Positions 32,762-43,966 of a stretch of DNA of 64,000 bases are shown one piece after another. The first letter of the stretch is position 1, and every line of letters starts with the position of its first letter. Under the pieces are notes generated by a model, which searched no databases, was not told the DNA's origin, and worked only from the letters and a program-made list of their open reading frames with translations. This DNA is from an uncultured Spirochaetota bacterium. GTDB taxonomy: Bacteria > Spirochaetota > Spirochaetia > SZUA-6 > Fen-1364. The position numbers and the translations under genes were made by a program. The stretch spans positions 256,001 through 320,000 of the forward strand of contig CAVTHO010000004.1 of NCBI GenBank assembly GCA_963734545.1. The letters run 5' to 3'.

Positions 32762-32925
32762 GAGCATCGCGCGAAGCGCGATATCCGTAGGGCGGCAGGC
32801 GTTTGCGGAGCAAACGCCGGGAGCCCGGCAGATGGGTCTATCCGGATGAGACGAGCCATCGCCCTAACCTCAATATGCCTTGCCCGAGGACCGCGCAGCA
32901 AGTACCTTCAACCGGGGGGCCCATC

Positions 32926-33967
32926 ATGATCAAAATATCAGGCAGAAAGCTGGAGCGGCTGGAGCATCTGGCCGACTCGCGGGGCGTTATCGCGGCGGCC
33001 GCAATGGATCAGCGCGGCTCATTGAAGAAGTCCATCGCCAAAGAAAAGGGCGTGGACGCCGCGCAGCTCTCCGACGACGTCATGAGCGAGTTCAAGGAGG
33101 CGGTGAGCAAGGTGCTCACGCCGCATGCCACCGCCATCCTCCTGGACACGGAGTTCGGCGAGCGTGCCATCAAGGCGCGCGCCAGGAACGCGGGCCTTCT
33201 GCTGGCGTACGAGAAAACCGGCTACGATGCGACGCAGCCGGGAAGGCTGGGTGATCTCCTCGATCACCTGAGCGTCCGGCGCCTCGCGGCGTACGGGGGA
33301 GACGCGGTGAAGCTCCTCCTTTACTACGCCGCGGACGACGATCCACAGGTCAACGACATCAAGCACGCGTGGATAGAACGCGATTGGGGCCGAGTGCGCG
33401 GCGGAGGAGATGCCGCTCTTCCTCGAGGTCGTGACCTATGATCCCCGGGGCGGGGAAGAGAAGAGCGTGGCCTTTGCCAGGCGCAAACCGGACCTTGTCA
33501 TGGGGTACATGCGGGAGTTCTCCAAGCCCCAGTACCGCGTGGACGTCCTGAAAGTCGAGATCCCCTTCGATATCGCGTTCGTCAAGGGTTCCAAGGCAAA
33601 CAAGAGCGGCCAGGCGGCCTATGACAAGCAGGAGGCAAAGGACATCCTCCAGCGTGCCGCCCAGTGCACGCACCTGCCGTTCATCTACCTCTCGGCAGGC
33701 GTGGACGATGACGTCTTTCGCGAGTCTCTCAACATGGCGGGAGAAGCCGGCGTGCCCTTTGCCGGGGTCCTCTGCGGCCGGGCCACGTGGAAAGAGGGAA
33801 TACCCGTCTATGCGAAACAAGGGGTAAAGGCGCTGGAAGACTGGCTTTCCGACCGCGGCGTAAAAAACATCGAGACGCTGAACGACGTGTTGAAGCAGTA
33901 CGCCAGGCCCTGGTACGCGGCGTACGGCGGACGGGACAAGGTACAGGCGGTCGAGCGGACCTCATAA
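32926..33967 (+). CDS. lacD: Tagatose-1,6-bisphosphate aldolase (class I), frameshift near 33382
   Basis: AAMDQRGSLKK, LLAYEKTGYD, VDVLKVE, PFIYLSAGV, GVLCGRATW. Confidence 0.88.
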
Positions 33968-33982
33968 AGCACAGCCTCGCCG

Positions 33983-34103
33983 TCGCGGCCGCTCCTGGCG
34001 GCATTCGCGGCCGCTCCTGGCGGCATTTCATGTCCACTGGTCGGCCTTTCGGCCATCCCTGGCCTCGGCCGACCTCGACATCACGGCCGCTCCTGGCGGC
34101 ATT
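33983..34103. repeat. Composite REP-like intergenic repeat cluster between convergent genes
   Basis: Three copies of CGGCCGCTCCTGGCGGCATT flanking a nested hairpin GGTCGGCC-TTTCGGCCATCCCTGGCCTC-GGCCGACC. Confidence 0.8.
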
Positions 34104-34109
34104 CCCTGT

Positions 34110-35072
34110 CTACGGTATCAGCACGATCTTGCCGAACGCGCCGGGCTCCATCACCTTGCGGTGAGCCTCGGCGGCACTGGCCAGCGGCAGCTCTGCTCCC
34201 ACCACGGGCCGCAGCGTCCCGTTTTCCAGCCCGGCCACGATGGCGGCATGCGCCGCCGCCACGTCCTCGTCGGAGATGTTCCACAGCAGCATGCCATAGA
34301 CTGCCCCGTCCCTGCCCATCAGCTCCCGTGGATTGATCGTCACCTCCCCGCGATTGCCGATCACCACGACACGGCCGCGCGGTGCCAGCAGCTTCAGGTC
34401 GGCGCCGAGGTTGACGTTGGCCAGCATCTCGAGGATGACATCGACTCCCCTGCCCCCTGTCAGCTCCCTCACCTGGTCCTGGTAGCCCGCCGCGCGGTGG
34501 TCCACCACGTGGTGCGCGCCCTCGCGGAGGGCCAGCTCGCGGCCCCTGTCCGTGCCGGCGGTGCCGATCACGATCATGCCCCGGGCCCGGGCAAGCTGCA
34601 CCGCCGCGACGCCGACCCCGCCGCTCGCGCCATGCACCAGGAGCGTTTCCCCTCCGCGGGCATGCGCCACCTGCTCCAGCGCCCGGTACGCTGTGGCGTA
34701 TGGCACGAACACCCCGGCGCCCTGGGCCCACGAGACCCGCTCGGGAAGCGGCTGGACCTGCGACTCGAGCGCCAGAGCGTATTCCGCGTACGTGCCGCTC
34801 ACCGTGCGGGCCGTGTACACGCGGTCACCCGGCTTTACCCGGCTCACGCCGGGTCCCGTCGTCTCGACCAGCCCGGCGCCGTCGGTGCCCGGCGTGTACG
34901 GAAGCTCGGGCTTGCGCGCATAGCTTCCGCTGCGCACGTACGTGTCCGCCGGATTGACGCCCGCTGCCATGATGCGCACCACGACCTGCCCCGGACCCGG
35001 CTTCGGCAGGGGGAGCTCGCCGAGCTTCAGCACCTCGGGTCCGCCAAACTCCCTGACAACGATGGCTTTCAT
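34110..35072 (-). CDS. NADPH:quinone reductase (zeta-crystallin/MDR family)
   Basis: FGGPEVL, AGVNPAD, HGASGGVG, GKIVL. Confidence 0.9.
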   Translation of the reverse strand: MKAIVVREFGGPEVLKLGELPLPKPGPGQVVVRIMAAGVNPADTYVRSGSYARKPELPYTPGTDGAGLVETTGPGVSRVKPGDRVYTARTVSGTYAEYALALESQVQPLPERVSWAQGAGVFVPYATAYRALEQVAHARGGETLLVHGASGGVGVAAVQLARARGMIVIGTAGTDRGRELALREGAHHVVDHRAAGYQDQVRELTGGRGVDVILEMLANVNLGADLKLLAPRGRVVVIGNRGEVTINPRELMGRDGAVYGMLLWNISDEDVAAAHAAIVAGLENGTLRPVVGAELPLASAAEAHRKVMEPGAFGKIVLIP

Positions 35073-36944
35073 GGTCCCTCCTCGGCGTCAGCCGTCGATT
35101 CAGGCAGCCGGATATCGAATTGGCATCCGGAGCCTTCGAGGTTCCTGACGCTCATGCTCCCTCCGTGCCTCTTCACGATCTGGTAGCAGATCGACAGGCC
35201 GAGCCCGATATTGTCGCCCTTCCCTTTCCGCGTCGAGTAGAAGGGAATGAAAATGTCGTTGAGGTCCGCGTCCCGGATCCCCGGGCCGGAGTCGGTGAAT
35301 GTCACGTGCACGGCGCCCCTGCCCTGCTCGTCCCGCGTCCGGCGGGTCTTGATGCTGATGGTCCCGCCGGCCGGCATGGCCTCGAAGCTGTTCTTCACCA
35401 GGTTGAGGACCACCTGCTTCATCTCGTTCCTGTTGACCGTGGCCAGGAGCGTCTTTTCCGGCGAATCGAACGTGATCGTGATGTGCTTGTAATCCGCGTT
35501 GTGACGGAGGAGGCCCAGGATGTTGCGGATCAGGTCATTGAGGTCGATCTCTTCCCTTTCCACCCTGTCCATGTTCGACAGGGAGAGGAGGTTCTTCACG
35601 ATGCCCGCGATATACGTGATCTCCTCGTGCAGCTCGTCGATCGCCTCGTGCAGCTTCCTGTCATTGAAGGAGAACTTGATATGCGTCAGGTAGTTGTAGA
35701 CGATCTCCAGCGGATTGTTGATCTCGTGCGCGACCCCCGCGGCGAGCAGGCCGAGCGAGGCGAGCTTTTCCGAGAGGATGACCTGTTTCTGCAGCTTGTC
35801 GAACTCGGTGACGTCCTCGATGATGATGATGTTGCCGATGCGCGCTCCTTCATCATAGATGGGGAGGGTCCTGACGTTGTTCACCGTGTCGGTCCCGCCG
35901 ATGACCAGGGGGACGTGGTAGAACGCCCTGCCTTCGTCGGAGAGCAGCGCGTCCCGTATGAGCCCGAGCGTCCCGCTGTTCCGCGCCCCCAGCAGGTCCG
36001 CGAGCGGCTTGTCCGCGAACTGCACGCCTTCCAGCCGGAAGTATTCCCGGCAGCGCTCGTTCACGATCTTGACGTTCTCCTGCGCGTCGCTCACGATGAG
36101 GTTCACCGGGCAGATTGAGCAGGACCGCCTCGTTGAACTTGAGGAACTGGTTGAACTCGCGTTTCAGGTTTCCCGAATCATTGCGCGCGTAGACCTGCGT
36201 ATAGGTGAGCTTGAGCAGGTTCATCCTGTCGATGTGCTCGACGTCGTCCGTCACCAGGATCTCGCCGTTCTTCACGATGCTGACCCGGTCCGCCACCTCG
36301 TAGACGTCGTCGATGCGGTGCGTGATGAAGAGGACGGCCATGCCTTCCTTCTTCATCCCGTCCATCATGCGCAGCACGCGGGCGAGATCTCCCGAGGAAA
36401 GTTTTTCCAGGGCTTCGTCCAGGATCAGCAGTCGCGGTTTCTTCTGCAGGGCGCACAGGATCGAGGTCAGGACCCGGTCGGGAAGGTTGAGGTGGCTCAC
36501 CGTGGCGGACGCATCGAGATTGAATCCGTGGGAGGAGAGGTATTCCTCCGCGTGACGCAGGATGTCCCTCCTGCTCAGCATGCCCCAGCGCTTCATCTTA
36601 CCGTCCAGGAAAAAGATGTTCTCGGCGACGGAGAAATAGTCATTGAGCTGGACCTGCTGGTGCACCATTTCGATGCCCATGCGATGCGCAAGGCTCGTGG
36701 ACAGGGCGGCATATCTCCCGGTGCCGAACTCGATGCATCCCCTCTTGGGCTTCATGTTGCCGCTGATGACCAGCCCGAGAGAGGATTTTCCCGCACCATG
36801 CTCACCCACCACCGCGTGGACCTTGGAGGGAAACAGGGAGAGGTTGACGTCTTTCAGCGCTTCGATCTGGCCGTAGTCCAGCGAGATGTGGGCAAGACGG
36901 AGCAGCTCGCGGGTTTCGCCCCCGACGCTACGCATTGATCCCAT
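35069..36944 (-). CDS. Sugar-ABC ATPase domain fused to PAS-HisKA-HATPase histidine kinase; single-base frameshift near 36108
   Basis: GEHGAGKS, MVHQ, LLILDE, ITHR in the N-terminal ORF; EKLASLGLLAAGVAHEINNPL, NLVKN, DSGPG, GLGL in the C-terminal ORF; deleting 1 nt gives continuous EAVLLNLPVNLIVSD. Confidence 0.8.
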
Positions 36945-38260
36945 AGCGCTCCATCTTGTTGTAGAGCGTCTTCCTGCTCATGTTCAGGAGCTGCGCGACC
37001 CGGGACCTGTTGTAGTTCGTGCTCTGGAGGGTCCTCAGGATCAGGTGCTTTTCCATGTCCTCGCGGATGTTGCGGGGGGTCGCGTTCAGCCCGCCGTCCA
37101 GGAAGGCGACAGGGAGGTCCTCCATGCCGATCCGTTCGCCCGCCGACATGGCCACGGAATAGTTGATCGTATTCTTCAGCTCTCTGACGTTCCCCGGCCA
37201 CGAGTGATCGAGGAACCGGGCCAGGACTTCCGGGGCAACGTCCTTCCGTGCGCCGGGGCTGGAATTGTGATACTCCGCGAGAAAATGCTCGACGAGGAGA
37301 GGGATGTCCTCTTTTCTCTCCCGGAGGGGAGGAACGGTGAGCACCGCCGCATTGAGCCTGTAGAAGAGGTCTTCGCGGAACAGGTTCTTCTCTATCAGTG
37401 CCCCGAGGTCCTTGTTCGTGGCGGCGATGAAGCGCACATCCACCCGGATCGTCTCGCTCCCCCCCAGCCTTCTGATCTCGCTGTTCTGGAGGGTCCGGAG
37501 GATCTTTGCCTGGATGCCGAGGGGCATGTCTCCGATCTCGTCGAGGAACAGGGAGCTTCCGTCCGCCTTCTCGAACACGCCCTTGAAGGCGGAATCCGCG
37601 CCGGTGTAGGCGCCCCTCTCGTGCCCGAACAGCTCGTTGTCCAGGAGGGACTCGGGAAAAGCCACGCAGTTGATCTTGATCATCTTCCGGGCGCCGCGCG
37701 CGGAGCTCGCATGGATGTTGTCCGCGATGACCTCCTTGCCGGTGCCGCTCTCGCCGCAGATCAGGACGGGGAGGCTGGTGGCGGCGAGCTTCTCCACCTT
37801 GCGGCAGAGGTCGAACATGCGCGCGTCCTGGGTGACGATCGTCGCGGAGAGCTCCATGCAGCCGGCTGCGAAGCTGGACATTTTCTTCCCGCAGCCGCGA
37901 GCACTCGGACGCGTTCTCCACGGTCTTCAGCAGCTCGTCGAAATCCAGCGGCTTCTTCACGTAGTCGAAAGCCCCCAGCTTGATGGACTGCACGGCCGTG
38001 TCTATGGAGGCGTACGCGGTGATCATGATCACGGGCACCCGGGCGTTGATTGCCAGGAGCCGCTTGAGGATGTCGATGCCGCTCTCCTCCGCCAGCATGA
38101 CGTCGAGAAGAACGACATCGATCCTGTTGTCGGAAAAGACCGTGACCGCCTGCTGCCCGTTGGTCGCGTAGAGCGCCCTGTAGCCGACGTGCTCGAAGTT
38201 CAAGGCCAGGCTCTTGCAGAGCTTCTCTTTATCGTCGATGACCAGGATGCAGCTTTTCAT
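36928..38260 (-). CDS. Sigma-54-dependent response regulator (NtrC/AtoC type), frameshift near 37859
   Basis: Receiver ILVIDD..LLDVML..KP; AAA+ GESGTGKE, GAYTGA, FLDEIG, FREDLFYRL, WPGNVREL; Fis-type HTH. Confidence 0.9.
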
Positions 38261-38304
38261 CTGTTGATTGTCACCAGGTTACCCAGGGGCCCCTCGCAAT
38301 ATGA

Positions 38305-38383
38305 GTAATTTTTACGCACTCACTATAGGGCCGCTGCTCGCCGGCTGTCAACGATTTTCTTGACAGCAGGGTAATTCCTTACA
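38305..38383. promoter_or_regulatory. Candidate enhancer-binding sites
   Basis: TGTCAA-N8-TTGACA at 38346-38365, flanked by GTAA..TTAC dyads near 38305 and 38371. Confidence 0.45.
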
Positions 38384-38432
38384 AGAATGCCACTTGAGAA
38401 AAGGGAATTCCCCTGCCCGGCAGCCATGCGAT

Positions 38433-38448
38433 TGGCATGAGAAATGCT
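38433..38448 (+). promoter_or_regulatory. Sigma-54 (-24/-12) promoter of the sugar ABC operon
   Basis: TGGCATGAGAAATGCT: GG-N10-GC with correct spacing, 60 nt upstream of the binding-protein ATG. Confidence 0.8.
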
Positions 38449-38508
38449 TCGGAGAGAGGCAAATCTGGAAGTTTTCCAGGGTTCCCATCCGAAGAAGGAG
38501 GAGAGAGC

Positions 38509-39453
38509 ATGAAGAAGCTGCTGTTCATTCTCGTTGCGGCGTCCCTCATATTCACCGCAACATCCGCGACAGCCCAGGCAAAGGGACAGATCAAGATCGC
38601 CATGGTGAATCTGGCGCTCACGAGTCCCTATTTCATCGGCATGTCCCAGGCGGTGAAGCAGGAATGCGATCGCTTCACGAACATCAAGCTCGTCACGACC
38701 GACGCAAAGGGCGACGCGCAGAAGCTGACCTCGGACGTGGAGGACGTCCTGGCACAGAACGTGAACGGTCTCATCATCAGCGCGGCATGGCTGGAGGCGG
38801 CCCCTGAAGCGCTGGACGCCATCAAGAGGGCCGGCGTGCCCGTGGTGCTCGTGGACAGGAAGCTCAAGGGCGGAGACTATACGAGCTGGGTCGGCCCCGA
38901 CAACACGCGCATCGGCATCCAGGACGGCGAGTACATCGTGAAGCGGCTGAACGGCAAGGGCCGGGTCGTGGTCCTGCGGGGCGGGCCCGCGGACAACTCC
39001 ATCGGCCTGGATCGGACCAACGGCATGATTTCCGCGGTCAAGAAGGCGGGCATGGAAGTCGTCATGGCGCCGAACTTCGGCGGCTGGAGCTCGGACGGCG
39101 GGTTCAAGCTGATGGAAGACATGCTGGCCAAGTACAGGAAGATCGACGCGGTCTTCGCGGAGAACGACTCCATGGCGCTGGGCGCGCAGAAAGCTATAGC
39201 CGATGCGGGACGCTCCAAAGAAATGTTCCTGTGCGGCGCCGACGGCGAAAAGGCCGCCCTCGTGGAAATCAGCAAGAAATCGAACTTCGCCGCCACCGGG
39301 CTCAACAGCTCGGATCAGATCGGCCGCGCGGGGTTCACCCGGCTCATGTCGCTCCTGGCGGGCGCGCAGTCCGAGAAGGACACGATCCTGCCCTCGCCCC
39401 TCATCACCATAGACAACGTCGCTCGGTTCCTCATTCCCGAGAGCGTATTCTAA
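38509..39453 (+). CDS. Monosaccharide ABC transporter solute-binding protein (RbsB-like)
   Basis: Signal peptide, PYF, PVVLVDR, VGPDN, AENDSMALGA. Confidence 0.92.
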   Translation: MKKLLFILVAASLIFTATSATAQAKGQIKIAMVNLALTSPYFIGMSQAVKQECDRFTNIKLVTTDAKGDAQKLTSDVEDVLAQNVNGLIISAAWLEAAPEALDAIKRAGVPVVLVDRKLKGGDYTSWVGPDNTRIGIQDGEYIVKRLNGKGRVVVLRGGPADNSIGLDRTNGMISAVKKAGMEVVMAPNFGGWSSDGGFKLMEDMLAKYRKIDAVFAENDSMALGAQKAIADAGRSKEMFLCGADGEKAALVEISKKSNFAATGLNSSDQIGRAGFTRLMSLLAGAQSEKDTILPSPLITIDNVARFLIPESVF

Positions 39454-39460
39454 ACCATCG

Positions 39461-39495
39461 CCATGACCTCCCTTCGGGGAGGTCATGGTCTTTTC
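39461..39495 (+). terminator. Hairpin/intrinsic terminator after the binding-protein gene
   Basis: 12-bp stem CCATGACCTCCC-TTCG-GGGAGGTCATGG then TCTTTT. Confidence 0.75.
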
Positions 39496-39508
39496 AGGGA
39501 GATCGTCC

Positions 39509-40972
39509 ATGCAAATGCTCATCGACGGCAGGTGGGTCGACGCCCGCGACGGAAAGACCCGCGCGATTCGAAATCCGGGGAACGGCGAGGTCATCGATAC
39601 CGTCCCCATGGCCGGGCTCCAGGACGTGGACGCTGCGCTGGAAGCCGCGGCGGCAGGCAGCGCGCGGATGCGCGCCACCCCCGCCCACGCGCGATCATCC
39701 ATCCTCGCGCGCGCGGCCCTGCTCATAGCCGCGAGGAAAGAGGAGCTCGCGACGCTCCTGGCCCGGGAGAACGGCAAGCCGATCCGGCAGACGAGGGACG
39801 AGATCGAGGTCACCTCCCGGATTTTCCGCGGCTTCGCCGAGGAGGCCAGGCGGATATTCGGCCGGACCGTGCCCATGGACGCGGTGCCGGGGCAGGAGCG
39901 GCATTTCGCCATGACCATCAGGCAGCCTTTGGGAGTCGTGGCCGCGATCGTTCCGTTCAACTACCCGGCGGAGCTCTATGCGCACAAGGCCGCCCCCGCG
40001 CTCGCCGCGGGCAATGCGGTGATTGCCAAGCCGCCCAGTGACTGCCCCCTCACGATGCTCCGCATCGCCGCGATACTGGAAGAGGCCGGCCTCCCGCGCG
40101 CGGCCCATCAGATGCTCACGGGGCCGGGGCAGCTCGTCGGCGAGCGCCTGGCCATGAGCCCCCTCGTGCGCCTCGTCTCGGTGACGGGAAGCACGGCAGT
40201 GGGAAGGAGGCTCGCGCAGCTTGGCGCGGAGAACCTTCAAAAGATCCACCTGGAGCTCGGCGGCAACGATTCGGTCATCATCTGCGCGGACGCCGACATA
40301 GAGAAGGCGGCCGAGGCCGTGGTCCTGGGCCGGCTGGCGCGCGGGAACGGTCAGATCTGCTGCGCGGTCAAGCGCGTGTTTGTCGACGCCCGGGTCATGG
40401 ACCTGTTTGCCCGGCGCCTGGCGGAAAAGGCCGCGGCCCTCAAGGTGGGGGATCAGCTTGCCGAGGACACCGACGTGGGACCGCTCATCACGGAGGAGGC
40501 GGCCCGGAGAGTGGAGGAGGCGGTTGCCGAAGCGGTGACGGCGGGCGCTAAAATCCTGTTCGGCGGCGGGCGGCGCGGTTCGTTCATGATGCCGACAGTT
40601 CTCACAGACGTGCCGGTGCAGACGCACCTGTTCAAGGACGAGACCTTCGGTCCCGTGGCGCCCCTGGTCGCCTTTTCCACGGAGGATGAAGCGGTGCGCA
40701 TGGCCAATGACAGCCCCTTCGGGCTGCAGGCAGCGGTCTTCACCAACGATATCACGCGGGCAATGAACATGGCATACCGGCTGGAGGTGGGCGGCGTGAT
40801 CGTGAACTGGTCCTCCGCGCTCAGGGCGGAGAACCTCCCCTTCGGGGGAACCAAGCTGAGCGGGTACGGCCGCGAGGGTCTGCACGACACGCTCCTCGAA
40901 ATGACGGAACAGAAGGTGATCCTGTTCCACAACGCGCTCTCGGTGTACGATGCCGGGCAGGCCGGTGCATGA
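39509..40972 (+). CDS. NAD(P)-dependent aldehyde dehydrogenase
   Basis: IVPFNYP, TGSTAVG, LELGGND, GQICC, ETFGP, PFGGTKLSG. Confidence 0.92.
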   Translation: MQMLIDGRWVDARDGKTRAIRNPGNGEVIDTVPMAGLQDVDAALEAAAAGSARMRATPAHARSSILARAALLIAARKEELATLLARENGKPIRQTRDEIEVTSRIFRGFAEEARRIFGRTVPMDAVPGQERHFAMTIRQPLGVVAAIVPFNYPAELYAHKAAPALAAGNAVIAKPPSDCPLTMLRIAAILEEAGLPRAAHQMLTGPGQLVGERLAMSPLVRLVSVTGSTAVGRRLAQLGAENLQKIHLELGGNDSVIICADADIEKAAEAVVLGRLARGNGQICCAVKRVFVDARVMDLFARRLAEKAAALKVGDQLAEDTDVGPLITEEAARRVEEAVAEAVTAGAKILFGGGRRGSFMMPTVLTDVPVQTHLFKDETFGPVAPLVAFSTEDEAVRMANDSPFGLQAAVFTNDITRAMNMAYRLEVGGVIVNWSSALRAENLPFGGTKLSGYGREGLHDTLLEMTEQKVILFHNALSVYDAGQAGA

Positions 40973-42505
40973 GCAATGAGAGCTACCTCCACATGGAGGC
41001 CATCTACAAGAAGTTCGGAGGCACGATTGCGCTGAAGAACGTCTCCCTGTCCGCCGCGCTCGGTGAGGTCCACGCCGTGGTGGGGGAGAACGGAGCCGGC
41101 AAGTCCACGCTCATGAACATACTCTCCGGGGCCGTCACGCCGGACTCGGGGACAATCGCAATAGACGGCAGGACGGTCGTGCTGGGCACGCCGCACGAGG
41201 CGAACCGCATGGGCATTCGCGCGGTGCACCAGGAGTTCAGCCTGGTACGCCACCTGACCATTGCGGAGAACATCCTCATGGGCAAGATGCCCACCCGCGG
41301 CGCGGGACGCGTGTGGGTGGACTGGGCCGGCACCAACCGGCGCGCCCGCTCGATCCTGGAGGACCTCGGGTTTCCGCACCTCGACGTGCGCACGCGCGTC
41401 TCCCACCTGAGCGTGTCCCACCAGCAGATCGTGGAGATTGCCAAGGCCCTGGCGGAGAAACCCCGCATCCTCATCCTGGACGAACCCTCGGCGGTCCTCT
41501 CCAAGGATGAGCTGGCGCTGCTGTTCTCCCTCATCAGGAGGCTCGCGGCGGAGAACACGCTCGTCATCTACATCTCCCACAGGCTGGAGGAGGTCTTCGA
41601 GATAGCCGACCGCATCACCGTTCTCAGGGACGGCGAGGTGGTGGGCACCGTACCGCCGGGTCGAGGTGGACCAGAACGCCCTGATCCGCATGATGGTCGG
41701 CCGTTCCGTGGAAGAGATCTACCCGGCGCGCGCCGCGCGGTCCGCGGAGGAGATCCTGTCCGTGCGGGGGCTCGGCCGCGCGGGGGAGTTCCACGACGTT
41801 TCCTTTTCCCTGCACAGGGGAGAGGTCGTCGGGGTGTTCGGCCTCGTGGGGAGCGGAAGGACCGCCGTGGCCCGCAGCATCTTCGGAGCCGAGCCGCCGA
41901 CATCCGGCAGCATCTTTCTGGAGGGCAGGGAGGTGCGCGTGAAATCCCCGCAGGACGCGGTGAACGCGGGGATCTCCTTTGTGACGGAGGACAGGAAGCG
42001 GGACGGGCTGATCATGAGCTGCACGCTGCGTGACAACATCAGCCTTGCCACTCTGCGCCAGATGAGCCACGGATTGATCCTGGACCGGCGCCGGCAGGAC
42101 AGGATGGTGCAGGGAAAGGTGAACGACCTTGCCATCCGCCCGTCGGACATCGGACAGAAGGCCAGGACACTGAGCGGGGGCAACCAGCAGAAGGTGGTCA
42201 TTGCGAAATGGCTGCTCTCCCGCACCCGGGTCCTGCTTCTGGACGAGCCTACCCGGGGCGTGGACATCGGAGCGAAGGTCGAGATCTATCACATCATCAA
42301 TGGTCTCGTGGAGGCGGGGATCGGCGTCCTGCTCATCTCGTCGGAAATGTCGGAGGTACGCGGCATGAGCGACAGGATCATCGTCATGAGGGAGGGACGG
42401 CTCGTGGGGAATCTGACAAGGGCGGAAGCGGATGAAGAGACGCTGCTCCAGTACGCCGCGGGGGTGACAGGAGCAGCCGGTGCGCACATAAGGGGAACAC
42501 CATGA
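40969..42505 (+). CDS. Monosaccharide ABC transporter ATP-binding protein (RbsA-like, two NBDs), frameshift near 41659
   Basis: GENGAGKST, ILDEP, ISHR; then EDRK, LSGGNQQKV, LDEPTRGVDIGAK. Confidence 0.9.
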
Positions 42506-43455
42506 AAGCAACGCTCCCGCTCGCGGAGAAGGCGCGGCTGTTCGTGAGGCTGCGATGGTCCGACTTCATCTTCATGGGGATATTCGTCGTCCTGATCCTG
42601 ATCAGCTCCCTCATATCCGAAACTTTTTTCACTTCCCGAAACCTCATCAACATCTCCCGGCAGATCGTGACCAACGGTCTCATCAGCCTCGGAATGCTGA
42701 TCGTGATCCTCACCGGCGGCGTCGACCTTTCCGTAGGATCCATCGTGGCAATCTGCGGCATCATGGCCACCGGATTGCAGAAGCAGATGCCCACCCCCGT
42801 GGCAATCCTCGTCGCACTTGCCGTGGGAATCACCGTCGGAATGGCCAATGGCTTTTTCATCGCGCGCTTCAAGCTGCAGCCCTTCATCGTCACCCTCGCC
42901 ACCATGGGCATCATCCGCGGCGCAACCTATGTCTTCTCGGAGACCCCGCAATCGCCGGTTGATCCGCTGTTCCGTTCGCTTCTGGGGGGTGGATTCATTG
43001 GACCCATTCCGAGGGCGGCAATCATCATGCTCGTCTTCTTCGTCATTGTGTGGTTTTTTCTCAACAGGACGATCCCCGGGCGCGCCGTCGTGGCCATCGG
43101 CGGCAATGAGGAAGCGGTCCGCCTTGCCGGCATCAACGTCAAGGGGCACCTCCTCATGGCGTACATGGTCTGCGGTCTGTTTGCCGCCATCGCGGGCGTC
43201 CTCCTGGCATCCCGGCTCGGCATCGCGCAACCGAGCTTCGGGGCCGGCTTCGAGATGGACGCGCTTGCCGCCGTGGTCATCGGGGGCGGAATCATGGGCG
43301 GAGGCGGCGGCGGGGCCATCGGGACATTATGGGGGGTGCTCATCCTGGGGGTCATCGACAACCTGTTGAATCAATACAACGTCCAGTCGTACTATCAGCA
43401 GATCATCAAGGGTCTCATCATCCTCGCCGCGGTGCTCTCGCGGAGGAAAAAATGA
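42502..43455 (+). CDS. Monosaccharide ABC transporter permease (RbsC-like)
   Basis: GGVDLSVGS, PFIVTL, AIGGNEEAVRLAGI, AAVVIGG. Confidence 0.92.
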   Translation: MKATLPLAEKARLFVRLRWSDFIFMGIFVVLILISSLISETFFTSRNLINISRQIVTNGLISLGMLIVILTGGVDLSVGSIVAICGIMATGLQKQMPTPVAILVALAVGITVGMANGFFIARFKLQPFIVTLATMGIIRGATYVFSETPQSPVDPLFRSLLGGGFIGPIPRAAIIMLVFFVIVWFFLNRTIPGRAVVAIGGNEEAVRLAGINVKGHLLMAYMVCGLFAAIAGVLLASRLGIAQPSFGAGFEMDALAAVVIGGGIMGGGGGGAIGTLWGVLILGVIDNLLNQYNVQSYYQQIIKGLIILAAVLSRRKK

Positions 43456-43489
43456 GACCAGGGTATTCGCGCACGGGGAGGATATCGCA

Positions 43490-43966
43490 ATGAGCGGCAC
43501 GGACAAACCGGATTTCGAAAAGCGGCTGCGGGACCTGGGATTCGCCGTCCCCGCGCTTCCTCCGCCCATGGGCCTCTACGTTCCCGCGGTGAGGACGGGT
43601 TCCCTGGTTTTTTGTTCGGGGCAGGGACCCTCCGTCGACGGAGTGTTGAAGTACATCGGCAAGGTCGGGGACACGCTGACGCTGGAGGACGGCTTCCAGG
43701 CCGCGCGCATCGCCGCTTTGAACTGCCTGGCGGAGGTCCGGTCGGTGATCGGCTCCCTGAACAAAATACGCCGCATCGTGCACCTGAGAGGATTCGTGAA
43801 CAGCGCCCCTGATTTCTTCGACCAGCCCAAGGTCGTGAACGGCGCCTCCCAGCTCGTGCTGGACGTATTCGGAGAGGCGGGCAGGCATTCGCGCGCCGCC
43901 CTGGGCACGTCCAACCTCCCCTCGAATATCGCCGTCGAGCTCGAGATGGTCGTCGAGGTGGAGTGA
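43490..43966 (+). CDS. RidA/YjgF family protein
   Basis: SGQGP, GFVNS, NGASQL, GRHSRAA, VELE. Confidence 0.9.
   Translation: MSGTDKPDFEKRLRDLGFAVPALPPPMGLYVPAVRTGSLVFCSGQGPSVDGVLKYIGKVGDTLTLEDGFQAARIAALNCLAEVRSVIGSLNKIRRIVHLRGFVNSAPDFFDQPKVVNGASQLVLDVFGEAGRHSRAALGTSNLPSNIAVELEMVVEVE

Follow-up and report, generated by a model that had tools for sequence, protein, structure and literature searches.

To our knowledge, cross-talk between ATP-binding cassette (ABC) transporters and two-component systems, as in the Bce and Pst-PhoU-PhoR systems, has been described only for systems made up of separate proteins, and how it works mechanically has been hard to pin down. In the MalK-MalT system, the ATPase subunit of an importer also regulates the transcription activator of its own regulon, and in ChvE-VirA an RbsB-like sugar-binding protein feeds a histidine kinase via the periplasmic domain of this membrane kinase. 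According to the cited accounts, BceS of Firmicutes, a kinase that lacks its own ligand-binding domain, responds to the activity of the ABC transporter BceAB and induces the transporter genes; the transporter serves antimicrobial-peptide resistance, and the sensing is of flux (PMC4513084, PMC10314905, 10.1101/2020.02.28.969956). For PhoR-PhoU-PstB, it has been described how the state of an ABC importer reaches a histidine kinase via contacts at the transporter ATPase (PMC6978683). The locus presented here lies in a stretch of 64,000 nucleotides (nt) from an uncultured Spirochaetota bacterium (contig CAVTHO010000004.1, positions 256,001 to 320,000), denoted as the window, in which position 1 is the first letter. 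It encodes a histidine kinase whose input module is the nucleotide-binding domain (NBD) of a sugar ABC ATPase, fused to a PAS-HisKA-HATPase_c core. Judged from gene content and promoter sequence, this kinase and the regulator encoded next to it very likely control the adjacent sigma-54-dependent sugar-uptake operon.

In the assembly, the kinase gene appears as two overlapping open reading frames (ORFs) on the minus strand, 35853..36944 (363 amino acids, aa) and 35069..36106 (345 aa), which lie in different frames and meet at the junction ctg ccc ggt gaa c on that strand. An extra base at 36108 splits the gene. The original prediction had joined both ORFs into one protein by removing a single base near this position, and a homologous protein and metagenomic contigs agree with it at the same break point. 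The intact homologue P0001 (621 aa) is colinear with both halves at 94-95% identity, and the halves meet in it between NEAVLLNLP and VNLIVSD. The frame was checked with short-read Logan contigs of four wetland-metagenome runs (X1-X4), compared over 32800-43500; these runs may include the sample of origin and thus provide an assembly check, not independent population evidence. One base is missing at 36108 in X1 (1 contig, depth 7.24/7.24) and in X2 (1 contig, depth 10.6/10.6), while X3 and X4 have no depth there (base call from 2 of the 4 runs). Two pieces bridge the position, one of 750 nt that differs from the window in 13 further letters and one of 385 nt that differs in 2 (98-99% identity). 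Further single-base omissions in the contigs are located at 37859 (X2, X4) in the gene of the NtrC-type regulator, at 41653 (X2, X4) in that of the two-NBD ATPase, and at 33382 (X3) in a tagatose-bisphosphate-aldolase-like gene. Since three neighbouring genes are broken in the same manner, the extra bases at 33382, 36108, 37859 and 41653 are very likely assembly insertions, and on sequence grounds the two ORFs are one gene for an NBD-fused kinase.

A true frameshift at 36108, leaving a free half-ATPase and a PAS kinase, or a pseudogene, is highly improbable. It would account for the two frames of the window sequence as given and for some shorter cluster proteins that consist of the kinase half only (P0335, 359 aa; P0374, 346 aa), although the latter may be fragments. 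It is opposed by the contigs that lack the base at 98-99% identity, by the same defect in three neighbouring genes with about a fifth of the genes of five families split, and by the start of the second ORF, which would be a GTG inside the conserved LPVNLIV motif. Programmed recoding at 36108 was considered as well and rejected, as the base is simply missing in near-identical contigs and three neighbours carry the same defect. At least four genes within 10.7 kb of the assembly are split by single extra bases, and a crude genome-wide count over five families in the 5.14-Mb, 10-contig assembly yielded 21 split versus 73 intact genes, in agreement with assembly error. Any broken gene of this genome requires a read check before it is called a pseudogene.

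Pfam assigns ABC_tran to the first ORF and PAS_4, HisKA and HATPase_c to the second, and the motifs named in the original prediction (GEHGAGKS, MVHQ, LNLPDR, LLILDE and ITHR) are all found in the sequence. H403 in the motif AHEINNPL, the phospho-acceptor His of HisKA kinases, is invariant (28/28 sequences). HATPase_c is recognised at 5e-24, and the invariant residues of the catalytic domain (N511 and N515; D548, G550 and G552; F562, P564 and F565; G577, L578 and G579) form the N, G1, F and G2 boxes. In an AlphaFold2 (AF2) model of P0001 with a mean predicted local distance difference test (pLDDT) of 75.8 and a predicted template modelling score (pTM) of 0.43, the NBD comprises residues 12-245, with pLDDT values mostly of ~80-94 and dips near 111-120 and after 230. 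It is followed by a low-confidence linker containing a helix (257-273), the PAS domain (278-374), two long DHp helices (376-451), and the catalytic domain (461-612). As had been proposed from the window sequence, the kinase harbors no transmembrane helix: the model shows soluble domains only, and the highest Kyte-Doolittle mean over 19 residues is 1.37 in P0001 versus 2.44 in the permease P0124. Among solved structures none covers both the NBD and the kinase parts, the best match being the PAS kinase 3a0r, and among NCBIfam models none reaches its cut-off for the kinase or indicates a characterised member.

The architecture is not confined to the window. With the kinase half as query against longer proteins, 8000 candidates were scored, 6906 of them at E <= 0.001, and the best 120 listed (120/120) are proteins of 609-645 aa with PF00005, HisKA and HATPase_c. 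In a profile search over 1.84 billion representatives at 50% identity, of which the best 150 clusters down to E = 2e-98 were considered, at least 124 represent proteins of 585-646 aa with one stretch running from the NBD through the catalytic domain. Another 24 of these 150 are shorter, either fragments or kinase-only proteins; P0355 (851 aa) is a longer variant with ABC_tran, HisKA and HATPase_c by Pfam, and P0359 is an ordinary HAMP kinase. Because the last of the best 150 are still members, 124 is a lower bound. The search for ABC_tran-PAS-HisKA-HATPase_c proteins that had been suggested earlier thus recovers the fusion in both data sets. Source names among the matches listed include Spirochaetia, candidate division KSB3/Vecturithrix, and Desulfomarina. 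Within the phylum of the window, sampled evenly, a match at E <= 1e-90 occurs in 9 of 401 genomes including the window's own, and the spread is patchy (4/17 genomes in family f19, 1/50 in f2). No paper on an ABC-NBD-fused kinase was retrieved by full-text literature searches, with subscription-only papers and supplements outside their coverage, and the family sequences are already public, annotated automatically as, for example, 'ATP-binding cassette domain-containing protein'. The statement that no protein of this architecture has been characterised therefore stands for the literature searched and for NCBIfam, but the architecture itself is not rare and represents a large family in the databases, unstudied rather than unseen.

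The genome of the window encodes a second, divergent copy (C5:210187-212016) as well as roughly 20-25 two-NBD sugar ATPases. This copy on contig C5 has its own sigma-54 regulator, a frame-shifted N-terminus, and sugar ABC transporter genes on both sides (C5:198001-224000); just upstream of it, another sigma-54 regulator is encoded together with an ordinary PAS kinase of 867 aa, along with one more transporter. Beyond the family, the ESM Atlas gave leads at a score of 0.83, namely ABC_tran-GAF_2-HisKA proteins of ~826-852 aa, mainly from Actinomycetota, and a 515-aa ABC_tran-HisKA cluster in Spirochaetota. These are candidates only, and NBD-fused kinases may form a wider class.

The input module derives from the RbsA/AraG/YtfR-type ATPases (CUT2 family). 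In RbsA/MglA-type proteins, the second NBD carries the signature LSGGNQQK and a GxGRT Walker A, and the kinase NBD resembles the first (Table 1). Hidden Markov model (HMM) scores amount to 150-188 on NBD1 versus 40-73 on NBD2. A tree of 86 NBDs was calculated with IQ-TREE in quick mode, with support from the Shimodaira-Hasegawa-like approximate likelihood ratio test (SH-aLRT) only. It contained 26 fused-kinase NBDs, 33 NBD1s from sugar ATPases with two NBDs (11 of these ATPases being encoded beside a fused kinase), 15 NBD2s, and 12 other ABC NBDs of the same genome, after thinning of the kinase rows from 37 to 26 and of the NBD2s to 15, and removal of three odd NBD1 rows. The kinase NBDs form a single clade (26/26, SH-aLRT 99) nested in the NBD1 radiation, the NBD2s form a separate clade (support 100), and the NBD1s of the neighbouring ATPases are dispersed over the tree, with 10 label changes for 11 rows. 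This combination of one kinase clade and scattered neighbours indicates one ancient fusion, in which a PAS-kinase core would have replaced NBD2; repeated independent fusions with the NBD1 of each neighbour were rejected on the same grounds. Within its own genome, the window NBD is closest to NBD1 of the neighbouring ATPase (40% identity vs at most 33% for the others).

Table 1. Sequence motifs of the fused-kinase NBD and of the two NBDs of sugar ABC ATPases.
Motif	Fused kinase	Sugar ATPase NBD1	Sugar ATPase NBD2
Walker A	GEHGAGKSS, kept	GENGAGKST	GL.GsGRTE
Q-loop Gln	kept	kept	replaced (pED)
Walker B	LLILDE with catalytic Glu	limDE	LilDe
H-loop	ITHR	ISH	iSS (no His)
Signature	LNLSDR	LSVaqQQ	LSGGNQQK
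D-loop region	DEALEKLS	DEPTsaL	DePTrGiD

Conservation is unevenly distributed over the NBD. The Walker A residues G44, E45, G47, G49 and K50, the Q-loop residue Q93, and the Walker B residues D173 and E174 are invariant in the 28 sequences of alignment A2, and most invariant ATP-site residues stay so in 37 sequences, down to 29% identity. The H-loop His is found in 22 of the 26 family rows shown (exceptions: ITRS in 1 row, LSSR in 3 rows). An LSGGQ signature is missing: the corresponding motif is LNLPDR in the window, LNLSDR in the family consensus and LSVSQQ in KSB3 members, and a SALD-like D-loop is replaced by DEALEKLS. Across these alignments, the nucleotide-binding residues are strongly constrained, whereas the elements of the inter-NBD ATP sandwich are not. 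The degenerate signature reported from the window sequence is present, but it is not peculiar to this protein, as it was inherited from the NBD1 half of RbsA-like ATPases.

The kinase is encoded directly downstream of a regulator gene whose end overlaps the kinase start. Response_reg, Sigma54_activat, AAA_lid_14 and HTH_8, all detected by Pfam, place the regulator in the NtrC class. The pair faces a divergent operon preceded by a -24/-12 element (Table 2), which was scored out of 12 against the consensus TGGCACG-N4-TTGCW, and which is one of only 4 matches of at least 10/12 on both strands of the 64-kb window. The exact pattern TGGCAC-N5-TTGC does not occur in the window; the actual element is two letters off and was found by the scored scan. 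Upstream of the promoter lie two inverted repeats, to which the activator may bind. The genome also encodes rpoN (Sigma54_DBD, 183.7 bits at C5:393509-394021). In the original prediction, a sigma-54 activator was paired with the kinase, facing the -24/-12 promoter of an operon for binding protein, aldehyde dehydrogenase, ATPase, permease and RidA, and the domains and the element were recovered. The aldehyde dehydrogenase and RidA-like genes could, speculatively, point to a pathway for a deoxy- or amino-sugar.

The same arrangement recurs at other loci. HMMs built from Pfam-checked seeds were run over all six frames of 19 stretches with 20 fused-kinase genes: the window, the C5 paralogue, 6 loci from named metagenome-assembled genomes (MAGs), and 11 loci from 8 coded genomes. 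In 20/20 loci, the gene immediately upstream on the same strand encodes a regulator of the NtrC/AtoC type, and a sugar ABC transporter adjoins the kinase-regulator pair in 19/20, so that the synteny expected with sigma-54 activators and RbsABC-like genes holds. A binding protein, an ATPase and a BPD_transp_2 permease all lie beside the pair in 18/20 loci; on L062, a contig of 7.5 kb, only the ATPase and the permease are seen. Among the 19 transporter-bearing loci, the two-NBD ATPase occupies a single open frame at 17, those of the window and L110 being split by frame changes, and one permease gene adjoins the kinase in 16. Two adjacent permease genes are present in L105 and L108, and a second, separate transporter set in each of L012 and the C5 paralogue region. 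Upstream regions, 21 of them, of varying length and one from a neighbouring operon with another kinase, contain a -24/-12 element of at least 10/12 in 16 cases, of 9/12 in 4 and none in 1, with the window-wide count as the only control; similar elements sit at the same position in related loci.

Some loci deviate in gene content. In a Spirochaetota MAG (L041:4941-11791), two pairs of regulator and NBD-kinase lie back to back, each facing its own binding protein-ATPase-permease operon and sigma-54 promoter, and both kinases belong to a small divergent subclade together with the C5 copy of the window genome. At L111:5703-6500, the transporter ATPase beside the NBD-kinase is a single-NBD protein of 265 aa, with GatZ/KbaZ-like and PfkB genes after it; this half-size ATPase is accompanied by an RbsC-like permease. 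Near a KSB3 module, L009:13702-16341 encodes an 879-aa methyl-accepting chemotaxis protein with a fused Peripla_BP_4 domain for sugar binding. In L109:11153-16130, the pair is followed by arabinose catabolic genes, namely those of a LacI-type regulator, an FGGY kinase, a class II aldolase, and an L-arabinose isomerase.

The mechanism that we favour, tentatively, is that the NBDs of the kinase dock on the permease and set the kinase output according to the transport state. The kinase is cytoplasmic and presumably dimeric, with an input module descended from NBD1 of an RbsA-like ATPase and an AtoS-type PAS-DHp-catalytic core in the place of the second NBD of a transporter ATPase. Both NBDs of the kinase dimer would bind to the coupling helices of a pair of permeases, in exchange with the ATPase that belongs to the transporter. 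Arrival of a sugar-loaded binding protein at the permease would then alter NBD spacing or nucleotide occupancy, and this change would be passed via the conserved linker helix to the PAS domain, the DHp helices and finally the kinase output. In this manner, a kinase that lacks any membrane segment would respond to sugar outside the cell or to transport activity. Together with the AtoC/NtrC-type regulator encoded upstream, it very likely activates the divergent sigma-54 promoter of the sugar-uptake operon. Docking is favoured because the NBD descends from a module that docks on such permeases, because it is kept beside such permeases, because a permease dimer would find two NBD1s in a dimer of the kinase, and because the window NBD is closest in its own genome to NBD1 of the neighbouring ATPase. 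A more specific version, in which the kinase dimer fills the ATPase seat on a fraction of the permease dimers as a dedicated sensor, the permease acts as the receptor of the kinase, and the output is phosphorylation of the sigma-54 activator, is possible but more doubtful.

When two copies of the permease were co-folded with residues 1-250 of the NBD (alignments A3 and A4), the score was 0.46 versus 0.00 for the best of 3 controls, with run contacts agreeing to at least 83% and a partner pLDDT of at least 76. The mark had been reached in the calibration by 116 of 157 solved complexes and by 2 of 215 mismatches, and scores of 0.60 or below accounted for only 18 of these complexes but for both of the mismatches. 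The co-fold gave no interface. The docking on the permease put forward by the original prediction is plausible and weakly favoured by the co-fold score.

Several observations weigh against docking. The co-fold is weak and may reflect a general likeness to solved ABC importers. The transporter has a complete two-NBD ATPase with normal motifs, so that docking needs competition or exchange. The NBD1s of the neighbours are scattered and the kinase NBDs form one clade, and hence no partner-specific co-evolution is visible. In L109, no transporter is located within ~9 kb of the NBD-kinase pair, and several of the loci, being from related genomes, do not count as independent. Moreover, it could be the PAS domain that actually senses the ligand, and the altered signature and D-loop could mean a lost NBD-NBD function and not a new use.

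The NBD might sense nucleotide or energy state without any docking, as an ATP-dependent clamp in the kinase dimer whose output tracks the energy charge, such that the operon is on only when uptake is affordable and a sugar signal enters via the PAS domain or is absent. The invariance of Walker A, Q-loop and Walker B residues across the family agrees with such a clamp, as do the solubility of the protein, the one locus without an adjacent transporter, and the failure of the neighbouring ATPases to cluster with the kinase NBDs. However, signature and D-loop, which build the inter-NBD ATP sandwich, are exactly the altered elements, which makes an ATP-driven NBD dimer of the classical kind unlikely. 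A generic sensor would also not be expected beside an RbsA-type sugar transporter in 19/20 loci, nor would its specific descent from an RbsA-type NBD1, and the catalytic domain of the kinase already binds ATP; on the whole, energy sensing is considered rather unlikely. Still less likely is sensing of the imported sugar or a catabolite by the PAS domain, with the NBD as a scaffold or dimerisation relic of a transporter-ATPase duplication. Cytoplasmic PAS sensing is common in the AtoS-like group, all members possess a PAS domain, the kinase core is AtoS-like according to NCBIfam, and the nearest relative of solved structure, 3a0r, is also a PAS kinase. In a relic, however, Walker A, Q-loop and Walker B would not have stayed invariant among sequences with as little as 29% identity; at least 124 of the best 150 clusters retain the NBD, and the linker between NBD and PAS is among the best conserved stretches.

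A motor function is very improbable. Here, the kinase NBDs would power or brake the permease as a substitute ATPase, and kinase activity would be a by-product. The retained catalytic Glu and Q-loop would suit this, L111 encodes only its short single-NBD ATPase, and the co-fold, with the weak support noted above, puts the NBD on the permease. A pair of NBD1-type domains, though, would leave both sites without LSGGQ, which argues against efficient hydrolysis, and the transporter's own two-NBD ATPase is intact at 17 of the 19 loci that carry a transporter. Docking on the permease remains the preferred, if tentative, reading.

Table 2. Features of the NBD-kinase locus, with positions in the window.
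Feature	Position	Strand	Basis or remark
NBD-fused histidine kinase gene	35069..36944	-	~624 aa from first ATG, 621 aa from second ATG (matches P0001)
N-terminal ABC NBD, NBD1 type of RbsA-like sugar ATPases	36195..36944	-	Pfam ABC_tran, motifs, tree, AF2
Family-specific conserved NBD-PAS linker, YTQ...EFxQFLKYNEAxLxNLP, partly helical in model	36109..36194	-	near-invariant columns (alignments A2, A4)
PAS domain	35801..36100	-	Pfam PAS_4, residues 3-102 of second ORF
HisKA (DHp, H-box AHEINNPL) and HATPase_c	35096..35755	-	Pfam; invariant H, N, G1, F, G2 box residues
NtrC/AtoC-type regulator: REC, sigma-54 AAA+ with GAYTGA, HTH_8, ~443 aa	36928..38260	-	split by extra base at 37859
Two inverted repeats, CCGGCTGTCAA-N8-TTGACAGCAGG and GCAGGGTAATTCC-N25-GGAATTCCCCTGC; candidate activator sites	38341..38416	.	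upstream of promoter
Sigma-54 -24/-12 promoter TGGCATGAGAAATGCT	38433..38448	+	~60 nt upstream of binding-protein start codon
Periplasmic sugar-binding protein, Peripla_BP_4, RbsB-like, signal peptide	38509..39453	+	Pfam, NCBIfam
Aldehyde dehydrogenase; best NCBIfam match lactaldehyde dehydrogenase, below cut-off	39485..40972	+	Pfam, NCBIfam
Two-NBD sugar ABC ATPase, RbsA/AraG-like, ~511 aa	40969..42505	+	split by extra base at 41653
ABC permease, BPD_transp_2, RbsC/AraH-like	42502..43455	+	Pfam, NCBIfam
YjgF/RidA-like protein, last operon gene	43490..43966	+	Pfam

Outside these features, the region 33976-34108 between the aldolase and quinone oxidoreductase genes is strain-variable. One X2 contig has 35 other letters for 131 nt there, and many small insertions at 34003-34007 coincide with a very high contig depth, perhaps due to a repeat shared with other organisms. 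No Rfam RNA family reaches its gathering score in the window.

The fused family provides a compact, soluble and genetically defined system for how a transporter or nucleotide state becomes kinase output, and it adds the ABC NBD to the list of histidine-kinase input domains. It would also supply a regulator for many sugar-uptake operons in Spirochaetota, KSB3 and other mostly metagenomic anaerobes. If the kinase indeed plugs into the permease, this would represent transmembrane signalling with the permease as the receptor, and a widespread form of it given at least 124 clusters at 50% identity; if the NBD is only a scaffold, the finding reduces to an odd domain fusion.

Compared with the RbsA-type ATPases, from which its input module derives, the kinase matches best, over residues ~10-250, the first half of YtfR, AraG, XylG, AlsA, LsrA, GguA and RbsA (NCBIfam), at scores far below the cut-offs (e.g. 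157 vs 850 bits). A GExGAGKS-type Walker A and a non-LSGGQ signature are common to the kinase NBDs and the NBD1 radiation in which their clade lies. In contrast to these ATPases, the kinase has one NBD and not two in tandem, with PAS-HisKA-HATPase_c in the place of NBD2; its D-loop region has changed from DEPTsaL to DEALEKLS, and its signature has diverged further to LNLSDR. The C-terminal half is closest to AtoS (208 bits) and ZraS, and the regulator to AtoC (331 bits), both scores staying below the equivalog cut-offs of 646 and 714 bits. As in AtoS/AtoC and ZraS/ZraR, the regulator comprises REC, AAA+ and HTH_8, and a -24/-12 promoter is present. Unlike these systems, however, the kinase lacks a membrane or HAMP part, its input is an ABC NBD, and the regulator gene precedes the kinase gene.

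Among the transporter-linked systems, Bce consists of separate proteins, and its intramembrane-sensing kinase, with two membrane helices, touches the permease in the membrane, whereas here the NBD is covalently fused to a soluble kinase. The present kinase has no membrane helix, and its neighbouring permease is RbsC-like (BPD_transp_2) and not a BceB with a large extracellular domain; the Bce regulator, moreover, is not known to be sigma-54 dependent. PhoR-PhoU-PstB involves three separate proteins with a membrane-anchored kinase, and PstB is a working ATPase, not a part of the kinase. MalK-MalT contains no kinase, and regulation is exerted by sequestration via the C-terminal domain of MalK between unfused proteins. 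ChvE and VirA-like kinases appear in this analysis only as NCBIfam names, and, in contrast to VirA, the kinase described here has neither a periplasmic nor a membrane part. Transporter-coupled two-component systems as such are thus already known; what is new here is an input module that is fused to the kinase.

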